Source of the DNA: Candidatus Thorarchaeota archaeon
Lineage (GTDB): Archaea; Asgardarchaeota; Thorarchaeia; Thorarchaeales; Thorarchaeaceae
Direction of reading: 5' to 3'
Length of the DNA stretch: 64,000 nucleotides
NCBI GenBank assembly: GCA_018335335.1
Contig: JAGXKG010000001.1
Span: 253,600 to 317,599, forward strand
Each line of letters opens with the position of its first letter. Position 1 is the first letter of the stretch. The translations under genes and the position numbers were made by a program. The notes beneath the pieces were generated by a model. The model ran no database searches. It worked only from the letters and a program-made list of their open reading frames with translations, and was not told the origin of the DNA. Shown here in pieces: positions 16,361-63,640 of the stretch.

Positions 16361-16446
16361 GCTGAAATTCTCCTGATATCTTGTTGTTCAACTTCAAATA
16401 CTGAAGCCAGTGCGTATAAGAAGCTTCAATCCGGAAAAGATGTCTA

Positions 16447-16794
16447 TTAACCAGTAAGTTCTATTTCAATGTATACCGAATCCGGTATCTTTACACGCAT
16501 GATTTGTCTAATGGCTCTTTCGTCCGCATCAATATCAATCAAGCGTTTGTGGATTCTCATCTCCCATTTGTCCCAAGATTGAGAACCTTGTCCACACGGA
16601 GTCTTTCGCGTTGGAACAACCATTCTTCTAGTAGGTAAGGGAATGGGACCAGCCATGCGGACACCTGTCTTGCGGGTGATGCGCTTAATCTGACTGCATA
16701 CATCATCTAGATGTTCAGTACTCGTACTTGACAACCTTATTCTTGCTCTTTGTGACATTTGGAATCGCACCCGCTTGGTAGGTGTCTTTTCCAA
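16447..16794 (-). CDS. rps10: 30S ribosomal protein S10 (uS10)
   Basis: 115 aa; ARIRLSSTS...[24 protein letters not shown] typical uS10; not in the usual tuf operon context. Confidence 0.9.
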
Positions 16795-23665: not shown

Positions 23666-23775
23666 TGGTGCTCCGGCCGGGACTTGAACCCGGGTCGGAG
23701 GATCGAGAGTCCCCCATGCTGGGCCGGACTACATTCGGTGGACTTAAGGCAAAGACCTTAGACTTCTACCGGAGC
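23666..23775 (-). tRNA. tRNA-Glu (anticodon CUC) with ~32-nt insertion near position 9/10; CCA encoded
   Basis: Acceptor GCUCCGG/CCGGAGC, anticodon arm GGGGA-CUCUCGA-UCCUC, T-arm CCGGG-UUCAAGU-CCCGG; D-arm AUGUAGUCCGGCCCAGCAU matches archaeal tRNA-Glu; extra AGAAGUCUAAGG...CCACCGA between acceptor and D-arm. Confidence 0.7.
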
Positions 23776-31554: not shown

Positions 31555-31655
31555 GCGGCCGTGGTCTAGCATGGTTAGGACTGAAGCTTCCCAAGCTTCC
31601 GACCCGAGACGGGAATGCAATTTCCGCGGGAATTCAAATCCCGGCGGCCGCACCA
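31555..31655 (+). tRNA. tRNA with 23-24-nt insertion in variable/T region; best reading tRNA-Gly (CCC); CCA encoded
   Basis: Canonical 5' half: acceptor GCGGCCG/CGGCCGC, U8, D-arm GUCU-AGCAUGGUUA-GGAC, anticodon arm GAAGC-UUCCCAA-GCUUC; 3' T-loop UUCAAAUCCCGG present; an extra segment with direct repeat CGGGAAU and a second hairpin (CGGGA-AUGCAAU-UUCCG, GCA) lies between. Confidence 0.6.
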
Positions 31656-37295: not shown

Positions 37296-39368
37296 TTGAT
37301 GGCAACATCCAAAGATGGTATCCAAGAGCGCTTCGAAGAGTTTCTACGAACATACAAGAATGAACACGGGAACTTGGTATACTGGCGCCAGATTCAACAG
37401 ATGTCCATCAATGACGAAACGAGTCTAAGTATTGACTTTGAGGACCTCTCAACTTTCGATAATGTGTTCATGGTCGAAGCTGCCGAGAACCCTACTTCCT
37501 TCTTAGAAAAAGCGAACAACGCACTCAAATCGGTTTTAAGAGTGGAGGACCCGGATTATGTACAAAGACTCCCTGAAGGAACAATACGCGCGAGAGTTGT
37601 AAACTATCCCGAGCACGTTGCTCTTAGGGCTTTGCGATCTAAACATATTGGTCGCCTCATACAGATAAGTGGTCTTATGATGCGTGCGAGTGAAGTCAAG
37701 CCGCTTCTTGTAGATGCTGTGTTCAAATGTAGGATATGTGAGGAGGAAATTTCGCAAAGACAAGAAGATGGACGCTATACAGAGCCCCCTATTTGCCCAA
37801 TTTGTGGAAAAAAAACCTCGATGAGATTACTTCCGAAGAAATCCAGTTTCATGGATTGGCAAAAAGTCCGGGTTCAAGAATCCCCCGAGGAACTACCACC
37901 AGGGCAAATGCCACGGTCGGTAGATGTTGTTCTTGAAGGTGATATCGTGGATTTATCGCGCCCCGGGGATTTGGTGCGGATAACGGGAATTCTTCAGACT
38001 TCTCCCGACTTTTCCAGACGTCGAGGCCGTCTGGCAACATTCAATGTCCACATTGATGCTGTTGGTATCGAAATTGCAGAAAAAGAATATGAACAAGTAG
38101 ATATCACTGAAGAAGATGAAAGGCGAATCAGGGAATTGGCTGAGGATCCCTATGTTCACGAGAGAATCTATGCCTCAATCGCTCCTTCTATCCATGGCCA
38201 TGAACGCATCAAAGAATCAATAGCCCTGCTCCTATTTGGCGGCGTTAGTAAGACCCTGCCTGACGGAACACGATTACGAGGCAAATCAAATATTCTGATG
38301 ATTGGTGACCCGGGTACTGGCAAGAGCCAGATATTGAAATTTGTTTCAAGCTTGGCGTCACGAAGTCTTTATACATCAGGAAAGGGTACAAGCGCAGCTG
38401 GACTCACGGCTGCTGTTGTTCATGATACTGATACTGGTGCTATGACGTTGGAAGCAGGAGCATTGGTACTAGCAGATCAAGGCATTGCTTGTATTGATGA
38501 GTTTGACAAAATGGACCCGAATGATAGAACTGCAATTCACGAGGCGATGGAGCAGCACACCGTAAGTATCGCTAAAGCTGGCATCGTTGCCACTCTGAAT
38601 GCTCGAACCTCAATACTGGCTGCTGCAAATCCTTCCCTTGGTAGATATGAGCCCCAGCGTTCGGTTCAAGACAACATCAAGTTACCATTCACCATCCTTT
38701 CGAGGTTCGACTTGTTGTGGATTCTTATAGACCGCGTAGAAGCAGAAAAGGATCGTGAGCTTGCGCAGTTCATCTTGGGAATGCACCAACTCAAGCAAAC
38801 AAAAAGTCAAGAAGGCGTACCTCCCATCGATCCGGAGTTTCTTCGCAAATACATTGGCTATGCAAATAGATATGTAATTCCGAGATTGACTGCTGAGGCT
38901 GCGGAGGTCATTGAAGATTTTTACGTTGGTCTTCGAAAGGGCGCAGAAGGTGGAGGCCAACCGGTTCCAATTACAGCACGCCAGCTGGAATCACTTGTTC
39001 GCCTAGCCGAGGCCAGAGCAAGAATGGGCTTGAGGTCCGAAGTAACAAAAGAAGACGCTCAAGCCGCTGTGCGACTCATGGAGGAATCCCTTCGCATGGT
39101 AGCTCTGGATGGAACGGGCAGAATTGACATTGATAAACTTGTTTCAACGATGAGTGCCGCACAGCGGAGCTCTTCTGATAAGATTCTTGATGCTATGAAA
39201 GAATTGGAAACTGAAGATTCATCAACTGTTAGCGAAGAAGCGCTACTTCAGAGAGTCTCAGATATGGGTGTTTCACGGGAACGAGCGGTTGAAGTAATAG
39301 AGAAACTTCTCGCTGAGGGGCTTATCTATAGCCCCAGCGAAGGCAAGATTGAGCGAATAAAGGGCTGA
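37296..39368 (+). CDS. mcm: MCM replicative helicase
   Basis: 690 aa; Zn finger C-x2-C...C-x2-C, Walker A GDPGTGKSQ, Walker B IDEFDKM, arginine finger, C-terminal wH; no intein. Confidence 0.95.
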   Translation: MMATSKDGIQERFEEFLRTYKNEHGNLVYWRQIQQMSINDETSLSIDFEDLSTFDNVFMVEAAENPTSFLEKANNALKSVLRVEDPDYVQRLPEGTIRARVVNYPEHVALRALRSKHIGRLIQISGLMMRASEVKPLLVDAVFKCRICEEEISQRQEDGRYTEPPICPICGKKTSMRLLPKKSSFMDWQKVRVQESPEELPPGQMPRSVDVVLEGDIVDLSRPGDLVRITGILQTSPDFSRRRGRLATFNVHIDAVGIEIAEKEYEQVDITEEDERRIRELAEDPYVHERIYASIAPSIHGHERIKESIALLLFGGVSKTLPDGTRLRGKSNILMIGDPGTGKSQILKFVSSLASRSLYTSGKGTSAAGLTAAVVHDTDTGAMTLEAGALVLADQGIACIDEFDKMDPNDRTAIHEAMEQHTVSIAKAGIVATLNARTSILAAANPSLGRYEPQRSVQDNIKLPFTILSRFDLLWILIDRVEAEKDRELAQFILGMHQLKQTKSQEGVPPIDPEFLRKYIGYANRYVIPRLTAEAAEVIEDFYVGLRKGAEGGGQPVPITARQLESLVRLAEARARMGLRSEVTKEDAQAAVRLMEESLRMVALDGTGRIDIDKLVSTMSAAQRSSSDKILDAMKELETEDSSTVSEEALLQRVSDMGVSRERAVEVIEKLLAEGLIYSPSEGKIERIKG

Positions 39369-39412: not shown

Positions 39413-40468
39413 TCAGAATATTAAATCTTCTAGACGATTCCTAACATTACCAACCAATGACTTCGTGTAATCGATGGCTTTTTCCTTCTCTAGGTACCTT
39501 TCTTCCCGCGGTTTCTGCTCCAAATCAAGGAGCTCTCGAACCAAGTTACACGATCCTTCTCCAAGAACACCGAGCTCATAACCGCCTTCTAGGAAGTAAA
39601 CAATTTTGCCCCCTGTGTACTTTAGAGCAAGTTTAGCAAGTCTTGAGTTGATACGAGCAATTCCTGACATGGTTAATCCCAAATTGGTCAGTCTGTCGCT
39701 ATAATGACAGTCGAAGCCTGCTGAAACTAGCACAAACTCTGGATGATATACATCAAATAGGTCGTCAATCATCCTTTCAAAGACAAGTGAATAAGACTGG
39801 TCTCCGCTTCCAGGATACATTGGGAAATTCACATTGTACCCTTTTCCTTTATTGATTCCAAGATCTTCACAGGAACCGGTTCCAGGAAAGAGTGTTCTAC
39901 CGTCTTGATGAATGCCAATGTACAGAACTCTCTCATCCGAGTAGAAGGCGTTCTGCGTGCCGTTACCATGATGTGCATCATAATCCAGTATCAGAACTCT
40001 ATCGAGTTCCTTTTCATTGACTAGATAGCTTGCAGCTACTGCTATATTGTTTATATAACAGAAACCCATAGCTCGTGAATATTCGGCATGATGCCCCGGT
40101 GGTCTACAGACTACATATGCATTATCGTACAATCCCCCAAGTACCCCTTCTACTGCATCTATTCCTCCGCCTGCAGATAGTAATGCTGCTTCATAGGTAT
40201 ATTCATTGGCCGAAGTATCAAGTGTGAACCATCCTTCCCCTTGTTTCGATTTGTACTTGATATCCTTAATATACTCTTTATCGTGTATGGTGTATACCGA
40301 TTCCAACCGTGCTTTTGAGGGTGTGACAATCTGAGCCATGTCATCTTTCAATAATGATTCTCGTTCTAGGCTCTCAATTATCGTTTTCACACGTTCAGGT
40401 CTCTCTGGGTGCCCCGGACTTAGCATATGCTTTTCATATGACGGGTGATAGAAAATGCCTGTAGACAT
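39413..40468 (-). CDS. Histone-deacetylase-family Zn-dependent deacetylase (AcuC/acetylpolyamine amidohydrolase-like)
   Basis: 351 aa; GFCYINN, DYDAHHGNGTQ metal-binding signature. Confidence 0.8.
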   Translation of the reverse strand: MSTGIFYHPSYEKHMLSPGHPERPERVKTIIESLERESLLKDDMAQIVTPSKARLESVYTIHDKEYIKDIKYKSKQGEGWFTLDTSANEYTYEAALLSAGGGIDAVEGVLGGLYDNAYVVCRPPGHHAEYSRAMGFCYINNIAVAASYLVNEKELDRVLILDYDAHHGNGTQNAFYSDERVLYIGIHQDGRTLFPGTGSCEDLGINKGKGYNVNFPMYPGSGDQSYSLVFERMIDDLFDVYHPEFVLVSAGFDCHYSDRLTNLGLTMSGIARINSRLAKLALKYTGGKIVYFLEGGYELGVLGEGSCNLVRELLDLEQKPREERYLEKEKAIDYTKSLVGNVRNRLEDLIF

Positions 40469-40646
40469 AGCAAGAATTCCCTATGAACTCTTGTATTTCT
40501 TGTCTTATGAATTACTCACATTTGAGAATGATTCTAAGAATTCTACTGTTTGAACATAAGTTCTATCTAATGCAAGCTTGCGAAACACCTTTGTTCAATA
40601 AGTAATCTTTATCTTATCCTCTATTCACCGCAAGAACCACACTGAA

Positions 40647-40751
40647 GGGTCGGTAGTCTAGCTTGGTATCTACCTGAGACTATCAGGTAGCCAAACTGAT
40701 TCATGCTTGGGGTGCATGAGACCGCGTGTTCAAGTCACGCCCGGCCCACCA
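40647..40751 (+). tRNA. tRNA-Pro (anticodon GGG) with ~26-29-nt insertion in the D-arm region; CCA encoded
   Basis: Acceptor GGGUCGG/CCGGCCC; canonical 3' half CAUGC-UUGGGGU-GCAUG, var AGACC, T-arm GCGUG-UUCAAGU-CACGC; 5' part has 48 nt where ~19 expected; AUCA-GGUAGCCAAAC-UGAU can form the D-arm after removing GUCUAGCUUGGUAUCUACCUGAGACU. Confidence 0.7.
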
Positions 40752-40761
40752 TACCTTCTTC

Positions 40762-41340
40762 CTATCTATTCTCCCTACTGGATTCTACTTCCCATAGAGT
40801 GTCGTATATCGGACCGGATGAGGTTAATGTGCTCTTCTTCATCCTAACAGAATCAATAATCATTTCACCAATTGTAACTTCTGATAGACTATCGATACAG
40901 CTTACGATGTTGCGCTTGTTTTTTACATGACGCACGCGCGCTATCGTTGCATGAGGTGTATATTCCCTGCGTTCAGGTTTATATCCCAATTTCCGAATTC
41001 TGTCATCTATTTTCTTTTTCAGCTTCTTGAATCTCTCCGCGTTATTTGAAACTCCAATCCAGATAATTCTTGGGCGGCGAAGAGCCGGAAACACGCCAAC
41101 CCCCTCCAATCTAATTCTAAAGGGTTGAAAGCTCAAATCCTTCAGACTTTCTTCGATTTCGTCAAGTCTTACAGGTTCCGTATCGCCAAAGAATTTCAGC
41201 GTAAAATGGACATTCTCTTGTGATATTAGCTTCATCTTAGCAGCATCTTGGTCAAGCTTTGATTGAACTCTATTTATCCTTGAAAGCAGATCTTTATCCT
41301 CGATGTCTATACTGAGAAAGGCTCTTACCGAATCACTCAA
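40762..41340 (-). CDS. thpR: RNA 2',3'-cyclic phosphodiesterase / 2'-5' RNA ligase (LigT, 2H family)
   Basis: 192 aa; two H-x-T-x motifs (HFTLKF, HATIAR). Confidence 0.75.
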   Translation of the reverse strand: MSDSVRAFLSIDIEDKDLLSRINRVQSKLDQDAAKMKLISQENVHFTLKFFGDTEPVRLDEIEESLKDLSFQPFRIRLEGVGVFPALRRPRIIWIGVSNNAERFKKLKKKIDDRIRKLGYKPERREYTPHATIARVRHVKNKRNIVSCIDSLSEVTIGEMIIDSVRMKKSTLTSSGPIYDTLWEVESSRENR

Positions 41341-42133: not shown

Positions 42134-42555
42134 AACTAAGAGTTGAATGTCCAGTTTATCCAACAGAAGAGATTGAGCGTGTAGAAGCTGCGGTGAAAAA
42201 TCTTTTTGGACACCATTCATTCGAAATCATCTCAGAGAATCACGAGAAAAGATTGCTATTCGTTTCGGAGGAACGCAGTACTGTTGATTTAATTCGGGAT
42301 TTGATTTATGATTTACAGATTCTTGACGTTGTACGTGCTAGGTTAATTCGCAATCTCGAATCTCTGGAAACCGACATATTTCTAGACAAACAAGCTGCGT
42401 ACTCGGGTCGACTAAGAGTAATTGATCAACTCCAACACAACCCCTCGCTAGGTTCAATACGACTTCATATGTCGTTTGTTAGCCGAAGTGAATTCGACGA
42501 TTTCCTGCGGTGGTTTTCTCCGAGGACAGAAGGAGGCGAGATAGTCCGTGCTTAG
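42130..42555 (+). CDS. Conserved archaeal protein co-located with UPF0200 kinase (UPF0201-like)
   Basis: 141 aa; ATGA-type overlap with upstream kinase gene; UPF0200/UPF0201 genes are typically adjacent in archaea. Confidence 0.4.
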   Translation: MKLRVECPVYPTEEIERVEAAVKNLFGHHSFEIISENHEKRLLFVSEERSTVDLIRDLIYDLQILDVVRARLIRNLESLETDIFLDKQAAYSGRLRVIDQLQHNPSLGSIRLHMSFVSRSEFDDFLRWFSPRTEGGEIVRA

Positions 42556-43583
42556 TTCTTCAACACGACTATTTCTCTTGTCAGACTCCGATGAACTCTG
42601 ATACTGACTTTTCTTTCAATTGTAAACCCCCTCTCTTCCGCAAGATTCCCCAGTTTCAACTCGCTGGAACTACATATACAGGCCCTTCCCTCTTTGCCCA
42701 GAATCTCGGGTATCTGTTCTAATAACGCAGAAAGAAGGTCTTTGGCTCTTGAACCGTATGTAGAGCTCGCCTGACCGTATGGTGGATCTGTAACAACGCC
42801 ATTGCAATGAGTCAAGGGCATGCGTTGAGCGTCGCTTTGAATTAAATTAAATTCCCCTCCTTTCAGACTTGAGAGATTATTCTTGGCTCCCTGCAAACGT
42901 AACCATTCTACATCCATACCAATGACCTTGCAACCTATTCTTGATGCTTCAAACAGTATTCCCCCAACACCACAATATGGGTCAAAAACCAAATCGTCTC
43001 TCTCTAGCTTGGCCAGATTACACATCACCATTGCTACTAAGGCATTCATAACTGAAGGATGAAACGATGGAAGCCTTTGTGACTGCTTCTTAATAAGATG
43101 GGAACGTAGACTAGATTCAATCGATTTGCAGACAAACATTACATCTCTCATCACAAAGAGACGGAATTCCACATCGGGATTCTCCAGAGACACGCTTGCT
43201 CCTGTGACCCTTTGTATTATGCTACCAAGAGCGATAGTTATCCTTCTTCTCACTTCGCTGCTATCATCCGAATCTAGGGACTGCGTTCTTATGCGAAATG
43301 ATTCCTCGTGTTCAATCATAGATTCTATCTTCGACTCGGAAATCTGCCCAATTTCTTTAACTGCCGTTTTTACCTCTGCAATGACTATTCCACTATACTT
43401 GAGCATTGCAGCTCTTTTTCGAAGGAACTTGGTATGATCCTCCTTAGTTTCAAAAATACCCAATCTGCCAAACCAGGAAATATCGGGATCTACACCCCGT
43501 AGTTCTAGTAATGCTTCCGTCTCATTCACTCCTAGAGTTCGATTCTCCCCGCTCAGAAACACAAAGAATTCTGGCAATTGCAC
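42552..43583 (-). CDS. tRNA (guanine10-N2)-methyltransferase Trm-G10/Trm11 family (THUMP + class-I MTase)
   Basis: 343 aa; N-terminal THUMP-like region; SAM motif I VFDPYCGVGGILFEASRIG; DPPYG motif IV. Confidence 0.7.
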   Translation of the reverse strand: MQLPEFFVFLSGENRTLGVNETEALLELRGVDPDISWFGRLGIFETKEDHTKFLRKRAAMLKYSGIVIAEVKTAVKEIGQISESKIESMIEHEESFRIRTQSLDSDDSSEVRRRITIALGSIIQRVTGASVSLENPDVEFRLFVMRDVMFVCKSIESSLRSHLIKKQSQRLPSFHPSVMNALVAMVMCNLAKLERDDLVFDPYCGVGGILFEASRIGCKVIGMDVEWLRLQGAKNNLSSLKGGEFNLIQSDAQRMPLTHCNGVVTDPPYGQASSTYGSRAKDLLSALLEQIPEILGKEGRACICSSSELKLGNLAEERGFTIERKVSIRVHRSLTREIVVLKN

Positions 43584-46687: not shown

Positions 46688-47632
46688 GTGACTGACGAAC
46701 TCAACGATTCACTACAGGATATTCGCTCGATTACTGGTGTGGAAAATGTCGTGCTTATCCAGAAAGATGGCTTACCAGTAGCGAGTGCTGGCATTTGGTT
46801 TAGCAAGGATGAGGTGTTCGCAGTAGCTTCCGCAGCGTGTGGGATATTTGGTGTCGTTAAACTAGTGCACCGGGATTTCAAGTACCTATTGATGGAATCA
46901 GATACTTCCAAAGTTTTCCTAGCTGCCCTCCCTCGGACTCCCAATTACTTCTTGACCATTACGACTGCACCCAGAGTTAATTTAGCTGCTCTATTTATTG
47001 AAATGCGTAGTACCCTCTCTCGCATATCATACATCTTGAATGAGCAAATGGGTGATTCTCTTCCTCCTTTGAGGTCTTTTAGCTCAGAGGAAACTAGACA
47101 TGTACTTCGAGGATTTTCGGTTGCTGAAGGACGGAAAGATACGCAACAGATTAGCCGAGAAGTCATTTCCTTGACAAGGAAGCAGACTTCTGAGCTAAGA
47201 ACTATTCTTGCACAAGTACATGACAACATATCAGATGTTCAATCCACTTTCCTTGCACTGAGTGGAGGTGTTCGGATATCGCTTGATGGTTTCACAAGCG
47301 ATCGGCTTGCTGCGATGTCTTTCGCCCTGCACGATACTTCAGAACAGGTCATTCGTACCTTGAGAAACAGTAAACTCCATACAGTCCTTTGTGAAACAAA
47401 CAATCGGCGTCATTTCATTTACGATGTTCCCCATGGTGTCTTCAGCCTCTGGGTTTCAAAAGAAAGCCAAAAGCTGGGTCTTATGCGACTTCTTCTTAAG
47501 CATTACATTGCAGAACTCAGACGAACTCTGAAATCTGCTTCTGTTTCTAGTCCTTCGCTACCTGATGACTTGCGTGATTTGCTTTTCTCCAAAAGGCCGG
47601 ATAGCGAATTAACGGTGGCGAGGCGAGACTAA
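46688..47632 (+). CDS. Tandem Roadblock/LC7 (MglB-like) domain protein
   Basis: 314 aa; GTG start; N-terminal IRSITGVENVVLIQKDGLPVAS...FAVASAACG fits Roadblock fold; second Roadblock-like repeat near residues 190-290. Confidence 0.6.
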   Translation: MTDELNDSLQDIRSITGVENVVLIQKDGLPVASAGIWFSKDEVFAVASAACGIFGVVKLVHRDFKYLLMESDTSKVFLAALPRTPNYFLTITTAPRVNLAALFIEMRSTLSRISYILNEQMGDSLPPLRSFSSEETRHVLRGFSVAEGRKDTQQISREVISLTRKQTSELRTILAQVHDNISDVQSTFLALSGGVRISLDGFTSDRLAAMSFALHDTSEQVIRTLRNSKLHTVLCETNNRRHFIYDVPHGVFSLWVSKESQKLGLMRLLLKHYIAELRRTLKSASVSSPSLPDDLRDLLFSKRPDSELTVARRD

Positions 47633-48579: not shown

Positions 48580-49158
48580 GTGATTGTTGATTATAGCTCA
48601 AAAACGATATCTTTGAAGATAGTCTTCTATGGCCCTGCCATGAGTGGTAAAACGACAGCAATCCGTTGGCTCTTCTCTTCATTTGATTATATTGATGAAC
48701 TCGCATCAATAGAGAATACAGTTGGTCGTACCATGTTCTGCGATTACGGTTCCATACCATTTCTTTTGGATAATGATTGGAAAATTGACACTCATATATG
48801 GTCTGCTACAGGGCAAGATTTCTACAGGTCTACAAGAGAAACCGTGCTCGTGGGGACAGACGGTCTTATCTTCATTGCAGATTCACAAAAGCATCTACTA
48901 GATACAAATCTGGAAAGTTGGCATGAACTGAACTCTATGTTCAATCTGGAAAACAAATCGCTTCCCATTGTAATCTGTTTGAATAAGCAAGATTTGCCAG
49001 ATACTGTGCATGAGAGAAAATTTCGAAAAGAGCTTGGTATCCCCCACTCAGTTGAGATATTACATAGTGTTGCACTTGATGGAACAAATATTATGCAGGC
49101 TTTCAGAATGATTTTTGACAGTGCTATGCGTTCAAGTTTACTGGCTTCACCTAGTTAG
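48580..49158 (+). CDS. Ras-superfamily small GTPase (MglA/Arf/Rag-like)
   Basis: 192 aa; G1 GPAMSGKTT, switch-II WSATGQD, G4 NKQD, G5 SVALD. Confidence 0.75.
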   Translation: MIVDYSSKTISLKIVFYGPAMSGKTTAIRWLFSSFDYIDELASIENTVGRTMFCDYGSIPFLLDNDWKIDTHIWSATGQDFYRSTRETVLVGTDGLIFIADSQKHLLDTNLESWHELNSMFNLENKSLPIVICLNKQDLPDTVHERKFRKELGIPHSVEILHSVALDGTNIMQAFRMIFDSAMRSSLLASPS

Positions 49159-50953: not shown

Positions 50954-52114
50954 ATGGATGAATCCCTTGATCGCGCTTTATCTGATTTAGTCGAGGAGAT
51001 AGAGCAGATCGAGAAAACCCGCAGAGCCTTCGGAGAGGTCATGAATCAGATAAAGAATGATATTGATTTAGCCAGTTTTCCTTCGGTTTCTGCTCGTCTC
51101 CCTGAGACGGTTCTAATCAATACTGTGAAACCAACTAGTCTTTCAGGACTCAAGGTTGCAGGTGTTGATGGTGGGTTAGTTCGAAAACGGTTTCGTTCAA
51201 TGGATCTTCTTTTCACTCGAGGAATTGGTGTAGTATTTGGGTTTGGATTCGAAGAAGGCCCAAATGTTGAATTCTTTCCCCAGCCATTTCCAAATCCAGA
51301 AGTTAGGCCTCTCACGCAAAAGATATCAACTTCAGAACTGGATCAAATTGCCTCACTCGAGCGTATAAGAAGTGAGCTACGGGTTGCCATTGGTCTAATT
51401 GAAGAGTATCATGCAGATCTTATTCTTATGGATGGCTCCCTCGTTTTTCATCCTCGAGACCGCCCAAACCGTAAATCCATGGCTTATTCAAAATTCCAAG
51501 AAGTTGCTGCGCTTTATCGTCAGCTCTTCCATAAGAGTAGTAAGAAGCGAACAATTCTACTGGGAATCGTTAAAGATAGTAGATCAACACGGATTGTAAA
51601 GACTCTTGGAGAAATCCTTCCTCATCTTCTCAAAGATCCTGCTCTCTTTGAGCTCATGGAAGGAGTAGACTACAGATGGTTGCTTAAAATCTCAAGAGAT
51701 TGTGACCTCCTTGATACGTTTCTCGAAGAAGGAGAACGCACTTTTGCCTTTCCGCTATCAGCAGAAATAGCGAACGAAAGGAAAGATAACAATCACGCCT
51801 TATCCTCTTGGACTTCTTCGATTTGGGTCACGTATTTGAAAGCAGCAAGGAATGACTTGCCTATCCGAGTTGAGATTCTTCTGAATGAAAATGATGATTT
51901 GAAGAAGATGGAAAAAGCACTATCTGCTATTTTGCCGCTTTCGTGGCAGCATCCTGAATATGGTGTACCCACACCTATCCTAGAGGCCGATGCCCGAGCA
52001 AGAATAAGCAAATCGGAAACTGATTTGATAGTTGACCGTCTCATTGCGCTATCGGGCCTTGCCTACTCTACACTCAACAAACGCCGCTCTCGAAATCCCT
52101 TTGGAGGTTCATAA
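50954..52114 (+). CDS. nurA: NurA 5'-3' nuclease
   Basis: 386 aa; VAGVDGG N-terminal catalytic motif region, RNase-H-like fold signature; immediately upstream of herA. Confidence 0.65.
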   Translation: MDESLDRALSDLVEEIEQIEKTRRAFGEVMNQIKNDIDLASFPSVSARLPETVLINTVKPTSLSGLKVAGVDGGLVRKRFRSMDLLFTRGIGVVFGFGFEEGPNVEFFPQPFPNPEVRPLTQKISTSELDQIASLERIRSELRVAIGLIEEYHADLILMDGSLVFHPRDRPNRKSMAYSKFQEVAALYRQLFHKSSKKRTILLGIVKDSRSTRIVKTLGEILPHLLKDPALFELMEGVDYRWLLKISRDCDLLDTFLEEGERTFAFPLSAEIANERKDNNHALSSWTSSIWVTYLKAARNDLPIRVEILLNENDDLKKMEKALSAILPLSWQHPEYGVPTPILEADARARISKSETDLIVDRLIALSGLAYSTLNKRRSRNPFGGS

Positions 52115-52115
52115 G

Positions 52116-53627
52116 ATGGAATATGCTCCCATAGAAACAAAACTTGGAACCGTTGTTTGTACAAACAATGGCCCTAGTGTTAATGCTTTTGATTTTGTTC
52201 TTGAGGACGAAACACCATCGGTGCGGCGGGGCGAATTCGTATCTTCTGTTGTGCAGGAAGGCGTGACGGTAATTGCTCGTGTACACGATTTGGTACGAAC
52301 AAATCGTTATTTCGAACATGCTGAGGCTGTGCGAGAATATCAATCACGCGGCCAATCGCTCCGCTCCATGTTTCCAACTGATCGCTGGCAATATACAATA
52401 GCTCAGACACAGGTAATCGGATTCTGGGCTGATAACCGGGCAATTCGTCCGTATTCAGCAGTTCCTCCCGGAGCCTCGGTCACAAGAGTAGATGAAGAAA
52501 TATTGAACGCCTTTCTTAAATTGGACAAAGAAAACGGTCTTAATCTCGGAACACTTGGGCATCATGATCTCAAATTCGTACCATCGATGAACCGCCTTTT
52601 ATCAAAACATCTTGCAATCTTGGCAATGAGCGGGGCCGGGAAGTCGTATTTTGTTTCAGTTCTGTTAGAGGAGATACTCTCACGAACCAAAGAAGAAGGA
52701 AGACTTGCTGTTGTAGTTGTTGATGTACATGGTGAATATACGTATCTGAAGGAAATGAAGGGAGATGATCTTGGCAAACCTGATTTAGATCTCGACATTG
52801 AGCATATTCGAGCATCTCACTTCCAAATCCCGGTTATTTCGCTTAGTGCTGATGCTATTGGGGCTCTTGTTGCGGGAATGAGCTCTGTTCAACGTCGCGA
52901 ACTGCGCAAAGTCATTTCTAGGATGCGGAGTCATTCGAAATCCGGGTACACACTCAGCGATGTCATTACCACCGTACGAGAAGACGATAATATCAATACG
53001 AATACCAAGGACGCTCTCATCGGATGGCTGCTCAATCTAGATGATACCGCCCTTTTTGGCAAAGAACCCACTCCCAGAATTGAGAAAGCAATCCGCCCTG
53101 GTAAACTCCTACTAGTCGACTTGAGTGACTTCGTGAGCCTGAAAAAGAAGCAAATCCTCGTATCCTATTTGGCTAATGAGCTTCTCTATCTTAGACGGTC
53201 CGGAAGAATACCACCGTTTCTCCTTGTCTTGGAAGAAGCCCACCAGTTCTGCCCAGAGAGTCGAAGAGAAATTGCTATACCAAAGGATCGCATAGAGACT
53301 ATCGCCAGGGAGGGACGAAAATTCTTTGCCTTGCTTTGCCTGATTTCTCAGCGACCTGTAAAACTGTCAACCACGGTTCTAAGTCAGTGTACAAATCAGG
53401 CAATATTCCGCTGCACTAATCCTTATGACTTACAGCATATTGGGCGTAGCAGCGAGGGGATAGATCAATCGTCCCTCGACGCGATAACCTCTCTGGAAGT
53501 TGGAGAATCTCTCATGGTAGGAGAGGTTGTGAGTGTTCCAACGTTTGTGAAGATAAGACATCGTCGCTTCGAACCGAAAGGAAAAATTACCAACCTTCTA
53601 GATGCTGTACGCGAAGCAGAGCGCTAA
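52116..53627 (+). CDS. herA: HerA bipolar DNA helicase
   Basis: 503 aa from MEYAPIETK (GGAGGT RBS 8 nt upstream; ATG 1 nt after nurA stop); Walker A MSGAGKSYF, Walker B LLVLEEAHQF. Confidence 0.85.
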   Translation: MEYAPIETKLGTVVCTNNGPSVNAFDFVLEDETPSVRRGEFVSSVVQEGVTVIARVHDLVRTNRYFEHAEAVREYQSRGQSLRSMFPTDRWQYTIAQTQVIGFWADNRAIRPYSAVPPGASVTRVDEEILNAFLKLDKENGLNLGTLGHHDLKFVPSMNRLLSKHLAILAMSGAGKSYFVSVLLEEILSRTKEEGRLAVVVVDVHGEYTYLKEMKGDDLGKPDLDLDIEHIRASHFQIPVISLSADAIGALVAGMSSVQRRELRKVISRMRSHSKSGYTLSDVITTVREDDNINTNTKDALIGWLLNLDDTALFGKEPTPRIEKAIRPGKLLLVDLSDFVSLKKKQILVSYLANELLYLRRSGRIPPFLLVLEEAHQFCPESRREIAIPKDRIETIAREGRKFFALLCLISQRPVKLSTTVLSQCTNQAIFRCTNPYDLQHIGRSSEGIDQSSLDAITSLEVGESLMVGEVVSVPTFVKIRHRRFEPKGKITNLLDAVREAER

Positions 53628-56457: not shown

Positions 56458-57453
56458 ATGCCGATATTATGTCTTGGTTTAGAAGGTACAGCACATTCAT
56501 TCGGTGCAGGAGTTGTCTCTAGTGATGGAAGAGTCTTATCAAATGAGTGGGATATGCTTACTCCTGAGAAAGGGGGGATTCACCCCCGAAAAGCCAGTAG
56601 GCATCATTCTCGTCTGGGTCCCCAGTTGATTAGCAAAGCCTTGAAAAAGGCGGGAAAACGACCTGACGACATCGACATAATTGCTTTCTCAAGGGGGCCT
56701 GGCTTGGGTCCTTGCTTAAGAACAACAGCAACAATGGCTAGAACACTTGCTCTCAGTCTTAATGTGCCTCTTGTAGGTGTGAATCACTGCGTTGCTCACA
56801 TTGAGATTGGCTGTCTGGAATCTGGTTTCGAAGACCCCGTTACCGTCTATGTTTCCGGCGGTAATACTCAAATTATTGCTTTTGCTGGTGGTAGGTATAG
56901 AACCTTTGGCGAAACTCTTGATATAGCACTGGGCAATATGCTTGATACTCTTGGCCGTGAGATGGGCATGAAGTTTCCTGCTGGTCCAACCATCGAGGCC
57001 TATGCGAGGGAAGGAACATCCTACTATAATCTTCCTTATTCCGTGAAGGGGATGGACGTAAGCTATTCCGGCATGTTGACAGCAGCAACTCGGCTTCATA
57101 CTGAAAATGTTGCCATGGATAATATCTGTTTCAGTGTTCAAGAAACGGCTTTTGGAATGATTGCGGAAATTGCTGAGAGAGCCATCGCACATACTAAGAA
57201 AGATGAGCTTCTGCTCACCGGTGGTGTCGCTAGGAATGAGCGTCTCACATCAATTCTTAGGGGCGTTTCAGAGCGGCATGAAATCGGTTTCCATAGGGTC
57301 TCCAAATCGCTAGCTGGAGATCAGGGGGCCATGATTGCTTGGACTGGTATAGTGCAATATCTTGCTGGAGATATACTCAATGTAGAAGATTCTACGGTAC
57401 TCCCTCGGTGGCGAACAGATGAGCAAGACATAGTGTGGAATAACGCGGAGTAA
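56458..57453 (+). CDS. kae1: tRNA N6-adenosine threonylcarbamoyltransferase Kae1 (KEOPS)
   Basis: 331 aa; LCLGLEGTAHSFGAGVV, HCVAHIE, metal-binding His pair. Confidence 0.9.
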   Translation: MPILCLGLEGTAHSFGAGVVSSDGRVLSNEWDMLTPEKGGIHPRKASRHHSRLGPQLISKALKKAGKRPDDIDIIAFSRGPGLGPCLRTTATMARTLALSLNVPLVGVNHCVAHIEIGCLESGFEDPVTVYVSGGNTQIIAFAGGRYRTFGETLDIALGNMLDTLGREMGMKFPAGPTIEAYAREGTSYYNLPYSVKGMDVSYSGMLTAATRLHTENVAMDNICFSVQETAFGMIAEIAERAIAHTKKDELLLTGGVARNERLTSILRGVSERHEIGFHRVSKSLAGDQGAMIAWTGIVQYLAGDILNVEDSTVLPRWRTDEQDIVWNNAE

Positions 57454-58083
57454 ATGACGATGGAAATGATAGCTCAAGGGGCGGAATCCTGTGTCTATAG
57501 AATCAAAAAATGGGGCAAGACACTTGCGATGAAATCCCGCCCCGAGAAAGGGTATCTTCTACCTGAGATTGACAAATCTATCCGCTCCAGAAGAACATCC
57601 AGAGAATGCAAAATGTTGACCTATGTTCGCCAATTAGGTGTGCCCACACCAGCTGTTTACTCGATAGACAAGGCAAATCATAGCATAATAATGGATTACA
57701 TTGAAGGAAAACAGCTCAAGGAACTCGTAGCAAATTTGCCGAAGAGAAAGTTGGTAGTGCTGTGCAGAGAATTTGGACACTACATCGGAATAATGCACAG
57801 TGCAAATGTGGTTCATGGAGATCCAACAACCAGCAATGTAATCATGGATTCAGCCTCTAAAATGTGGTTCATTGATTTCGGTTTAGCGGAGAAAAATGCC
57901 ACTATTGAAATGAAGGGGGTGGATCTCCATCTTATTCGCCGAGCGCTTGAAACAACCCATTGGGATTGTCAGAATCTTATGTTCGAAGCCGTCTTGGAGG
58001 GCTACACTCAGACTGTAGGTTCCCAATCTACCGAAATTCTCTCACGGATGAATAGCATTAGGGAACGCGGAAGATATCATTGA
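57454..58083 (+). CDS. bud32: Bud32 atypical kinase (KEOPS)
   Basis: 209 aa; GAESCVY glycine loop, catalytic HGDPTTSNVIM, DFGLA; start overlaps the kae1 stop. Confidence 0.85.
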   Translation: MTMEMIAQGAESCVYRIKKWGKTLAMKSRPEKGYLLPEIDKSIRSRRTSRECKMLTYVRQLGVPTPAVYSIDKANHSIIMDYIEGKQLKELVANLPKRKLVVLCREFGHYIGIMHSANVVHGDPTTSNVIMDSASKMWFIDFGLAEKNATIEMKGVDLHLIRRALETTHWDCQNLMFEAVLEGYTQTVGSQSTEILSRMNSIRERGRYH

Positions 58084-63552: not shown

Positions 63553-63640
63553 GCGGAGGTTACCAAGCCAGGCCAAAGGTGCGGGACTTAGGATCCCGTC
63601 TCGTAGGAGTCCGCGAGTTCAAATCTCGCCCTCCGCACCA
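63553..63640 (+). tRNA. tRNA-Leu (anticodon UAG), class II, no intron, CCA encoded
   Basis: Acceptor GCGGAGG/CCUCCGC, D-arm GUUACCAAGCCAGGCCAAAGGUG, anticodon loop CUUAGGA, long variable arm UCUCGUAGGAGUC, T-arm GCGAG-UUCAAAU-CUCGC. Confidence 0.85.

Follow-up and report, generated by a model that had tools for sequence, protein, structure and literature searches.

A tRNA-Pro(GGG) gene at positions 40647-40751, on the plus strand of the 64-kb stretch of DNA analysed here (the window, whose host belongs to the Thorarchaeota, a group of Asgard archaea), carries within it a 28-nt intron located between A21 and U22, where the D-loop meets the D-stem 3' strand. We establish the gene, its exon boundaries, its conservation and the fit of the intron to bulge-helix-bulge (BHB) geometry, and we favour, with a probability of roughly 90%, the reading that this is a single syntenic tRNA-Pro(GGG) gene whose transcript, made from a putative promoter, would undergo ordinary archaeal protein-catalysed splicing at a relaxed BHB motif at 21/22, predicted enzymes carrying out the predicted cleavage and ligation. 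The clade to which the window belongs has the D-loop intron only, whereas the other Thorarchaeota orthologues have an intron at 37/38 and, in some cases, another in the T-loop.

The gene, its neighbourhood and its spliced product

The tRNA gene is flanked by protein-coding genes in an order, MCM-HDAC-tRNA-LigT, that most of the fetched Thorarchaeota loci have kept. The MCM protein of the window shares 70-79% identity with its counterparts in many Candidatus Thorarchaeota MAGs (GTDB), and 43-51% with those of other Asgard archaea and of Thermofilaceae. A Thorarchaeota MAG at NCBI has a LigT identical to the window protein, and the host is accordingly taken to be an uncultured member of the group. 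The parts of the locus are:

37296-39368: MCM gene, the upstream neighbour of the tRNA gene
39413-40468, minus strand: neighbouring gene of the histone-deacetylase family (HDAC)
40608-40615, plus strand: putative archaeal TATA-like promoter box TTTATCTT, with AATC before it, 32-39 nt upstream of the mature 5' end
40647-40668, plus strand: exon 1, with the acceptor 5' strand GGGUCGG (1-7), U8 and A9, the D-stem 5' strand GUCU (10-13) and the D-loop AGCUUGGUA (14-21)
40669-40696, plus strand: intron of 28 nt, UCUACCUGAGACUAUCAGGUAGCCAAAC, made up of U, CUACCUGA, GACUA, UCAGGUAG, CCAA and AC
from 40697, plus strand: 5' portion of exon 2, with the D-stem 3' strand UGAU (22-25), U26 and the anticodon arm CAUGC-UUGGGGU-GCAUG
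40709-40711, plus strand: anticodon GGG
to 40751, plus strand: 3' portion of exon 2, with the variable loop AGACC, the T arm GCGUG-UUCAAGU-CACGC, the acceptor 3' strand CCGGCCC and A73
40749-40751, plus strand: encoded CCA
40762-41340, minus strand: neighbouring gene for a LigT-family 2',3'-cyclic phosphodiesterase

When 40669-40696 is deleted in silico, ARAGORN recognizes the remaining 77 nt as a tRNA-Pro(ggg) with its four arms complete, the predicted junction 40668/40697 joining ...GCUUGGUA to UGAUUCAUGC.... The product has the features of an archaeal elongator tRNA-Pro. The acceptor stem has 7 bp and is followed by U8, A14, G18G19 and A21 are present in the D-loop, the anticodon stem of 5 bp closes a loop of 7 nt that contains U33 and G37, the variable loop is 5 nt long, and the T-stem, also of 5 bp, closes the loop UUCAAGU. 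Its D-stem pairs G10-U25, U11-A24, C12-G23 and U13.U22, and both the stem and its loop are the same in 35 orthologues. The first-pass annotation of this DNA had recognized a tRNA-Pro(GGG) with a canonical 3' part from the anticodon arm, 5-nt variable loop, T arm and acceptor, and this identification stands; it had also judged the 5' part to be about 29 nt too long, and extra sequence is indeed present there, but it amounts to 28 nt. No insertion breaks the anticodon loop, so that a single intron at 37/38, which had been held out as the competing model, is not possible.

A box of the AAYSTTTATYTT type lies 30-40 nt upstream of the orthologous tRNA-Pro genes in most of 43 distinct upstream sequences, among which the bases around the box vary, and we infer from this pattern that the box at 40608-40615 may be a promoter element.

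Orthologues fix the exon junction

A strict scan of the MCM loci for tRNA-Pro matched only the window, because the orthologues carry an intron at 37/38; a BLAST search with the exons then found them, and 35 loci, among those that we number L003-L076, could be parsed end to end. In these 35 orthologues GGGUCGGUAGUCUAGCUUGGUA is followed directly by UGAUUCUUGCUUGGGG (UGAUUC), uninterrupted at the D-loop junction of the window, and UGAU is therefore the 3' strand of the mature D-stem, which fixes the junction independently of any rule about splice sites. The first 22-23 nt of the gene, corresponding to exon 1, are 100% identical in most of the fetched Thorarchaeota loci, and the neighbourhood, the D arm and the splice-site geometry are likewise those of the window gene. 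The introns themselves are elsewhere: all 35 have one of 29-33 nt at the canonical 37/38 position, where no Thorarchaeota orthologue parsed outside the window clade lacks an intron, 18 of them have a further intron of 28-30 nt in the T-loop, and none of the 35 has an intron in the D-loop.

This comparison was used to place the boundaries because ARAGORN alone cannot do so: when given every single deletion of 10-45 nt, 2610 in total, it accepted 520, including products with wrong anticodons.

The orthologue junction also bears on where in the D arm the extra sequence lies. The first-pass annotation had proposed a non-canonical D-arm intron near 9/10, and while the D arm was correct, the junction puts the position at 21/22. 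For an intron at or near 9/10, GUCUAGCUUGGUAU would have to be an intronic look-alike of a D arm whose true counterpart lies downstream, a reading suggested by the nearby position (10/11) of the intron in the window tRNA-Glu gene and otherwise by the impression of the raw sequence alone. Yet no D-loop, that is, no GG in a suitable loop, occurs downstream before the anticodon stem, and GUCUAGCUUGGUA, which had been dismissed as a look-alike, is the true 5' strand of the D-stem together with the D-loop, identical in about 40 orthologues and conserved as the D arm in all. We consider a 9/10 intron extremely improbable.

Splice-site geometry

In a BHB intron the last bases of exon 1 pair with the last bases of the intron, and cleavage on each strand follows the second nucleotide of a 3-nt bulge. 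Applied to the intron at 21/22, this gives the following elements:

40663-40666, plus strand: exon half of the central 4-bp BHB helix, U17 U17a G18 G19 (UUGG), pairing with CCAA at 40691-40694
40667-40669, plus strand: 5' splice-site bulge UA|U, predicted cut between 40668 and 40669, after A21
40670-40677 with 40683-40690, plus strand: inner intron hairpin with an 8-bp stem, CUACCUGA/UCAGGUAG, and the loop GACUA at 40678-40682
40691-40694, plus strand: intron half of the central helix, CCAA, seen in the MFE and centroid folds and in the rule check (4/4)
40695-40697, plus strand: 3' splice-site bulge or internal loop AC|U, predicted cut between 40696 and 40697, before U22

In the window the boundary is ambiguous by one base, as U stands at both ends and deletion of 40670-40697 gives the same product. 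We place the intron at 40669-40696 on the strength of the BHB rule and of L082, a second D-loop-interrupted locus described below, in which the junction GGUA|A is unambiguous. The cut positions predicted in this way agree with the exon junction of the orthologues.

The 105-nt pre-tRNA has a predicted MFE of -45.1 kcal/mol (z = -3.4), and none of 200 dinucleotide-preserving shuffles folds as well; its fold contains the acceptor stem, the anticodon arm and the T arm, with a long composite hairpin in the place of the D arm. The UUGG/CCAA helix, with all four of its pairs, appears in both the MFE and the centroid folds, as is characteristic of the central helix of a BHB intron, and the 5' site UA|U is a clean 3-nt bulge between this helix and the 8-bp helix in every predicted conformer. 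The 3' site is less tidy. In the MFE fold AC|U is partly paired (AG/CU), and the conformer in which it is a 3-nt bulge lies 3.4 kcal/mol above the MFE and has four unpaired bases opposite the site, which set off a nascent 3-bp D-stem from the central helix. The helix adjoining the 3' site consists of either 1 bp (C16-G23) or the displaced 3-bp D-stem (GUC/GAU), so that the strict hBHBh' form is not attained. Because its 3' site is closed only weakly, the splice motif of this tRNA-Pro is, on the predicted folds, a relaxed, one-sided BHB.

The same rule describes the other introns of these genes. When pairs were counted for each intron between exon bases -6 to -3 and intron bases -6 to -3, the D-loop introns scored 4/4 in all four distinct sequences, the 37/38 introns of the orthologues had three or four pairs in 32 of 33 distinct sequences, and the T-loop introns of the orthologues had 4/4 pairs in 14 of 19. 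The 37/38 introns of the other Thorarchaeota build their central helix on an exon tetramer UUGG, as does the D-loop intron of the window. A self-splicing group I or group II intron was considered and rejected, the insertion being 28 nt long as against a catalytic core of hundreds of nucleotides, and no Rfam intron model matching at the locus.

It might also be asked whether the 28 nt are removed at all, or are kept in the mature tRNA as an additional hairpin on the D-loop. That hairpin is conserved as well as stable, and splicing is itself something that we infer. Retention would, however, part G18/G19 and A21 from the D-stem, sequester U17-G19 and block the contact between D-loop and T-loop that every elongator tRNA needs; moreover, the ends of the insertion match the splice-site rule of the other introns of the lineage, and the hairpin is absent from all other Thorarchaeota orthologues. 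We think retention quite unlikely, and removal by splicing remains the reading that we pursue.

The intron in close relatives

Relatives of the window lineage came from protein searches with LigT and HDAC, in which they form steps of 94-96%, 84-86%, 78% and 76% identity, separated by a clear gap from the next matches at 59% or less. Their contigs are from Logan (SRR14023877, ERR2437277 and SRR25621648/39/42), JGI (3300012002 and 3300022699), ENA (ERZ27241916) and NCBI (GCA_964448665.1). The 28-nt intron is present at the same site, and complete, in L083-L086 and L088-L091; the contig of L087, the 78% lineage, begins inside the intron and still reads CAAAC|UGAUUC. No intron at 37/38 or in the T-loop was found in the window-clade contigs that cover the gene. 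The exons of the fully covered relatives are identical to those of the window, and the partly covered L087 differs at one base of the variable loop.

Within the clade the intron has accumulated five substitutions, two of which are pair-preserving changes in the stem (one C-G to U-G in L083-85 and one U-A to U-G in L088) and three of which are changes in the loop (GACUA to UAUUA in L088), while CCAA and the bulge bases are invariant. There are three distinct variants and the stem changes are wobble rather than double compensatory changes, so that the covariation evidence within the intron is thin.

These variants speak to a two-intron model, in which AGAC in GAGACU (40677-40681) would be the 3' strand of the D-stem and would form a 5-nt mini-exon between introns of 8 and 20 nt. 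The pairing GUCU/AGAC would be perfect, the following U would take position 26, and multi-intron tRNAs do occur in the group, L082 having three introns. Against this, the loop of L088 reads GAUAUUA, with no AGAC and with unchanged exons; in 35 orthologues the D-stem 3' strand UGAU comes directly after GGUA; an 8-nt intron cannot form a BHB; and AGAC falls in the terminal loop of the 8-bp hairpin. The second GAGAC, which the first-pass annotation had pointed out alongside the supposed D-arm look-alike, belongs to that hairpin loop, and the two-intron model has next to nothing to recommend it over a single intron at 21/22.

A chimera or other assembly artefact might be suspected in a window that derives from a metagenome-assembled genome, but the same structure recurs in independently assembled contigs from several samples and pipelines (Logan, JGI, ENA and NCBI), and we regard the chance of an artefact as practically nil.

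Relative to the exons of other Thorarchaeota, those of the window clade differ by three fully compensatory stem changes: one in the anticodon stem, from CUUGC/GCAAG to CAUGC/GCAUG (U-A to A-U), and two in pairs of the T-stem, from GGGAG/CUCCC or GGGCG/CGCCC to GCGUG/CACGC. Together with the conserved TATA-like box, these changes argue for a functional gene. The first-pass annotation had allowed that the locus might instead be a pseudogene, decaying under a 28-nt insertion while a functional copy served elsewhere in the genome. Such a copy could exist outside the window, and standard tRNA finders do miss the gene; nevertheless, the locus is a conserved syntenic orthologue, its exons are identical even in relatives in which the identity of LigT and HDAC falls to 76% and the flanks have diverged, the compensatory changes preserve the cloverleaf, the insertion has BHB geometry and structure-keeping substitutions, and the promoter-like box is retained. 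Decay is in our judgement improbable.

A second lineage with a D-loop intron, and intron turnover

A scan of metagenomes for D-loop-interrupted tRNA-Pro genes with identical exons returned one locus, L082 (JGI contig Ga0209986_10000026), and the D-loop intron is thus known in two separate Thorarchaeota lineages, this one and the window clade. L082 has three introns, two of 31 nt at 21/22 and 37/38 and one of 30 nt in the T-loop; the one at 21/22 ends, like the window intron, in CCAA and two further bases. In sequence, the window D-loop intron scores no better than shuffles when compared with the D-loop intron of L082 and with 17 orthologous 37/38 introns (best p ~0.06-0.2). The LigT of L082 is 55% identical to that of the window and 60-65% identical to that of several lineages that do not have the D-loop intron. 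An NJ tree built from 172 columns of LigT recovers the window clade as monophyletic in all 100 bootstraps, and that clade groups exclusively with L082 in 2 of the 100. As judged by this one short marker, the 21/22 intron may have arisen twice, or once with repeated loss.

A search of the window for second copies of the intron with up to 3 mismatches found only the site itself and its palindromic reverse strand, and similar introns elsewhere, the mark of a transposed intron family, are lacking within the 64-kb window and among the orthologue introns compared. A mobile-intron history, which the first-pass annotation had also suggested, gains no support from these two comparisons but may have occurred all the same.

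The D-loop site, G15 C U U G G U A21|U22 G23, and the canonical site of tRNA-Pro, G30 C U U G G G G37|U38 G39, do have their exon surroundings in common, both conforming to GCUUGG-NN|UG. It is tempting to speculate that an intron ending in CCAA-NN might be spliceable from either site by way of the duplicated UUGG context, although we hold this to be doubtful. The shared context could make 21/22 a permissive landing site, or could allow relocation from 37/38, but we assign a low probability to either idea because no similarity of intron sequence stands behind it. Were it true, it would explain how a clade comes to be without a 37/38 intron and yet with a D-loop intron, through intragenic relocation or replacement, as well as the presence of a 21/22 intron in L082, which the LigT tree does not place as sister to the window clade, and it would provide a natural case of exon sequence predetermining the sites of archaeal tRNA introns.

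Other tRNA genes of the window and their detection

Of the four tRNA genes in the window, three have one non-canonical intron apiece, each at a different position. Besides tRNA-Pro, these are:

23666-23775, minus strand: tRNA-Glu(CUC), with a 32-nt intron at 23734-23765, position 10/11, central helix CGGU/ACCG
31555-31655, plus strand: tRNA-Gly(CCC), with a 24-nt intron at 31609-31632, position 53/54, central helix CCCG/CGGG

ARAGORN accepts both the Glu and the Gly products when they are spliced by the BHB rule. The suggestion in the first-pass annotation that two tRNAs share an insertion position is not borne out, as the positions are 21/22 in tRNA-Pro, 10/11 in tRNA-Glu and 53/54 in tRNA-Gly.

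On the raw window, ARAGORN calls tRNA-Leu (63553-63640) and does not call tRNA-Pro, and so sees one of the four tRNA genes. At the gathering threshold, Rfam finds none of the four window tRNA genes; with permissive filters it finds tRNA-Leu and tRNA-Gly but neither tRNA-Pro nor tRNA-Glu. For tRNA-Pro, the permissive search with the tRNA model RF00005 yields only a partial match at 40686-40742, which scores 21 bits where the gathering score is 29; an unspliced locus below that threshold is to be expected from an intron in the D arm. Apart from this partial match and a chance match to a viral element, Rfam reported nothing at the tRNA-Pro locus.

Discussion

If the reading of a single intron spliced at 21/22 is correct, transcription would give a pre-tRNA of about 105 nt with one 28-nt intron, in which the intron 3' end CCAA would pair with UUGG of the D-loop (U17-G19) to form the central 4-bp helix. 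The 5' site would then lie in the UA|U bulge, next to the 8-bp intron hairpin, and the 3' site AC|U on the opposite strand, four bp away. EndA would cut at both sites to give 2',3'-cyclic phosphate and 5'-OH ends, the exons would be joined by a ligase of the RtcB type, and splicing would restore a normal D arm with the loop AGCUUGGUA. No gene for EndA (tRNA_int_endo, Pfam) or for RtcB was found within the 64-kb window, so that the type of enzyme is taken here from the literature on another Thorarchaeota genome.

Non-canonical BHB introns in tRNA genes are well established in Crenarchaeota, where one review covers introns at D-arm positions such as 20/21 and 22/23 as well as tRNAs with multiple introns and the transposition of introns (PMC4090602); those of the Thermoproteales have been described by Marck & Grosjean 2003, Sugahara et al. 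2008 and Fujishima et al. 2010, as reviewed in PMC4090602. Like these, the window intron is short, protein-spliced in our reading and located outside 37/38, has splice sites marked by two bulges and by a helix of 4 bp in which its 3' end pairs with exon 1, and presents a relaxed motif that would need an endonuclease of broad specificity. It differs from them in its host, an Asgard archaeon of the Thorarchaeota, and its position, 21/22, is not among the D-arm positions that the review names as examples in a list left open-ended with 'etc.' (PMC4090602). The claim of transposition in the Thermoproteales is based on families of similar introns spread over several genes, whereas none was found for the window intron within the scope of the window.

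Closer to the host, the genomes of Atabeyarchaeia and Freyarchaeia, which belong to the same superphylum but to a different Asgard class, are reported to have frequent non-canonical and multiple introns, with 92-95% of their tRNA genes containing introns (PMC11291895). One tRNA-Pro(GGG) of Atabeyarchaeia has a single 25-nt intron that starts at gene position 18 (Supplementary Data 4 of PMC11291895), in the D-loop region like that of the window but, by the tabulated coordinates, starting ~4-5 nt earlier.

According to published work, one-sided BHB motifs require an EndA of the (alpha-beta)2 or epsilon2 type that carries a specificity loop, and Asgard genomes, including Thorarchaeota SMTZ1-83, are reported to encode an (alpha-beta)2 EndA with the L1 (Crenarchaea-specific) loop (PMC5829648). 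By analogy, this is the class of enzyme that might be expected to act on the relaxed motif of the window. The first-pass annotation had raised the possibility of a lineage-specific endonuclease specificity, which holds in the broad, already published Asgard sense (PMC5829648) and is otherwise unsupported. Both non-canonical introns and a broad-specificity endonuclease are already on record for Asgard archaea, and the window intron is a tidy example of the former.

Current understanding is left unchanged by this locus, whose value lies mainly in annotation and in a well-resolved case of intron turnover. With regard to annotation, Thorarchaeota genomes annotated with tools such as those used here would seem short of essential tRNAs, and incomplete tRNA sets in Asgard genomes have already been noted by Kaneta et al. 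(PMC5829648). With regard to turnover, the locus offers a clean and well-sampled instance at one orthologous gene, the canonical intron having been swapped for a D-loop intron in one clade. It also supplies a defined relaxed BHB substrate with which the specificity of Asgard EndA could be tested, an enzyme that attracts interest because it is related to the tRNA splicing endonuclease of eukaryotes.

Introns of tRNA-Pro(GGG) across Thorarchaeota

The orthologues of the window's tRNA-Pro(GGG) were collected from syntenic loci of other Thorarchaeota (L003-L076), in which the gene lies ~3.5 kb downstream of MCM, and 35 of them were parsed. All 35 carry a 37/38 intron of 29–33 nt, and 18 of the 35 have an additional T-loop intron (about 58/59) of 28–30 nt. 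Three introns are found together in a lineage that is separate from the window clade in the LigT tree (L082, JGI contig Ga0209986_10000026):

L082:560-720, (-), tRNA-Pro with introns at 21/22, 37/38 and in the T-loop; gene length about 165 nt

The window gene, which is interrupted at 21/22, contains the exon context GCUUGG-NN|UG (the bar marking the cut site) twice, at 40663-40670 in the D-loop before 21/22 and at 40705-40714 in the anticodon stem-loop before 37/38, and the same UUGG forms the exon side of the central bulge-helix-bulge (BHB) helix for both the 21/22 and the 37/38 introns.

Surroundings of tRNA-Pro

When window positions 40592-40646 were compared with the sequences in front of the orthologous tRNA-Pro genes of L011-L089, most orthologues were found to share a box, AAYSTTTATYTT, which precedes the mature 5' end by 30–40 nt and is probably a BRE/TATA promoter. 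One subgroup (L003-L008 and L017) lacks this box and instead shares ...GCAGUCAUGAG...

Two protein-coding genes close to tRNA-Pro:

40762-41340, (-), LigT-family 2',3'-cyclic phosphodiesterase / 2'-5' RNA ligase
42552-43583, (-), UPF0020 (RMKL-like) methyltransferase domain protein, 343 aa, assigned by a Pfam domain match

The LigT-family gene is convergent with tRNA-Pro, its end lying 10 nt from the tRNA 3' end, and the adjacency is kept across Thorarchaeota; a link to the 2',3'-cyclic phosphate ends that tRNA splicing produces would be conjectural. The UPF0020 family includes the tRNA G10 methyltransferases; the window's UPF0020-domain gene lies 1.8 kb from tRNA-Pro, which carries a G10-U25 pair.

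The MCM of a close relative of the window lineage (L088:3517-3579, NCBI GCA_964448665.1) is 1219 aa long, the gene extending beyond the locus edge, with Intein_splicing and LAGLIDADG_3 domains inside its MCM domain, whereas the window MCM (690 aa) is without an intein.

Other interrupted tRNA genes

Two further tRNA genes of the window contain a single intron each:

23666-23775, (-), tRNA-Glu(CUC), 32-nt intron at 23734-23765, position 10/11
31555-31655, (+), tRNA-Gly(CCC), 24-nt intron at 31609-31632, position 53/54

The tRNA-Glu intron has CGGU/ACCG as its central helix and AG|A and AA|U as its bulges. ARAGORN made no call on the unspliced gene, which scores 28.5 bits in Rfam against a threshold of 29, whereas the spliced sequence is called as tRNA-Glu(ctc), 78 nt. 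For the tRNA-Gly intron the central helix is CCCG/CGGG, and splicing yields a T-stem of CCGAG/CCCGG with an A52.C62 mismatch; the intron site and the mismatch both recur in one other Thorarchaeota locus. Among the fetched loci, ARAGORN called more than 20 intron-free tRNA-Gly(CCC) genes.

Other features of the window

A weak PYLIS_3 Rfam match at 16407-16510 (-) scores 25 bits, below the gathering score of 38 (E = 0.46), and is most likely due to chance. The remaining features are protein-coding:

46688-47632, (+), Roadblock/LC7 domain protein
48580-49158, (+), Arf/Ras-like small GTPase
50954-53627, HerA/NurA
56458-58083, Kae1 (TsaD domain) and Bud32-like kinase

The Roadblock/LC7 and Arf/Ras-like GTPase genes are eukaryotic-signature-like and typical of Asgard archaea.
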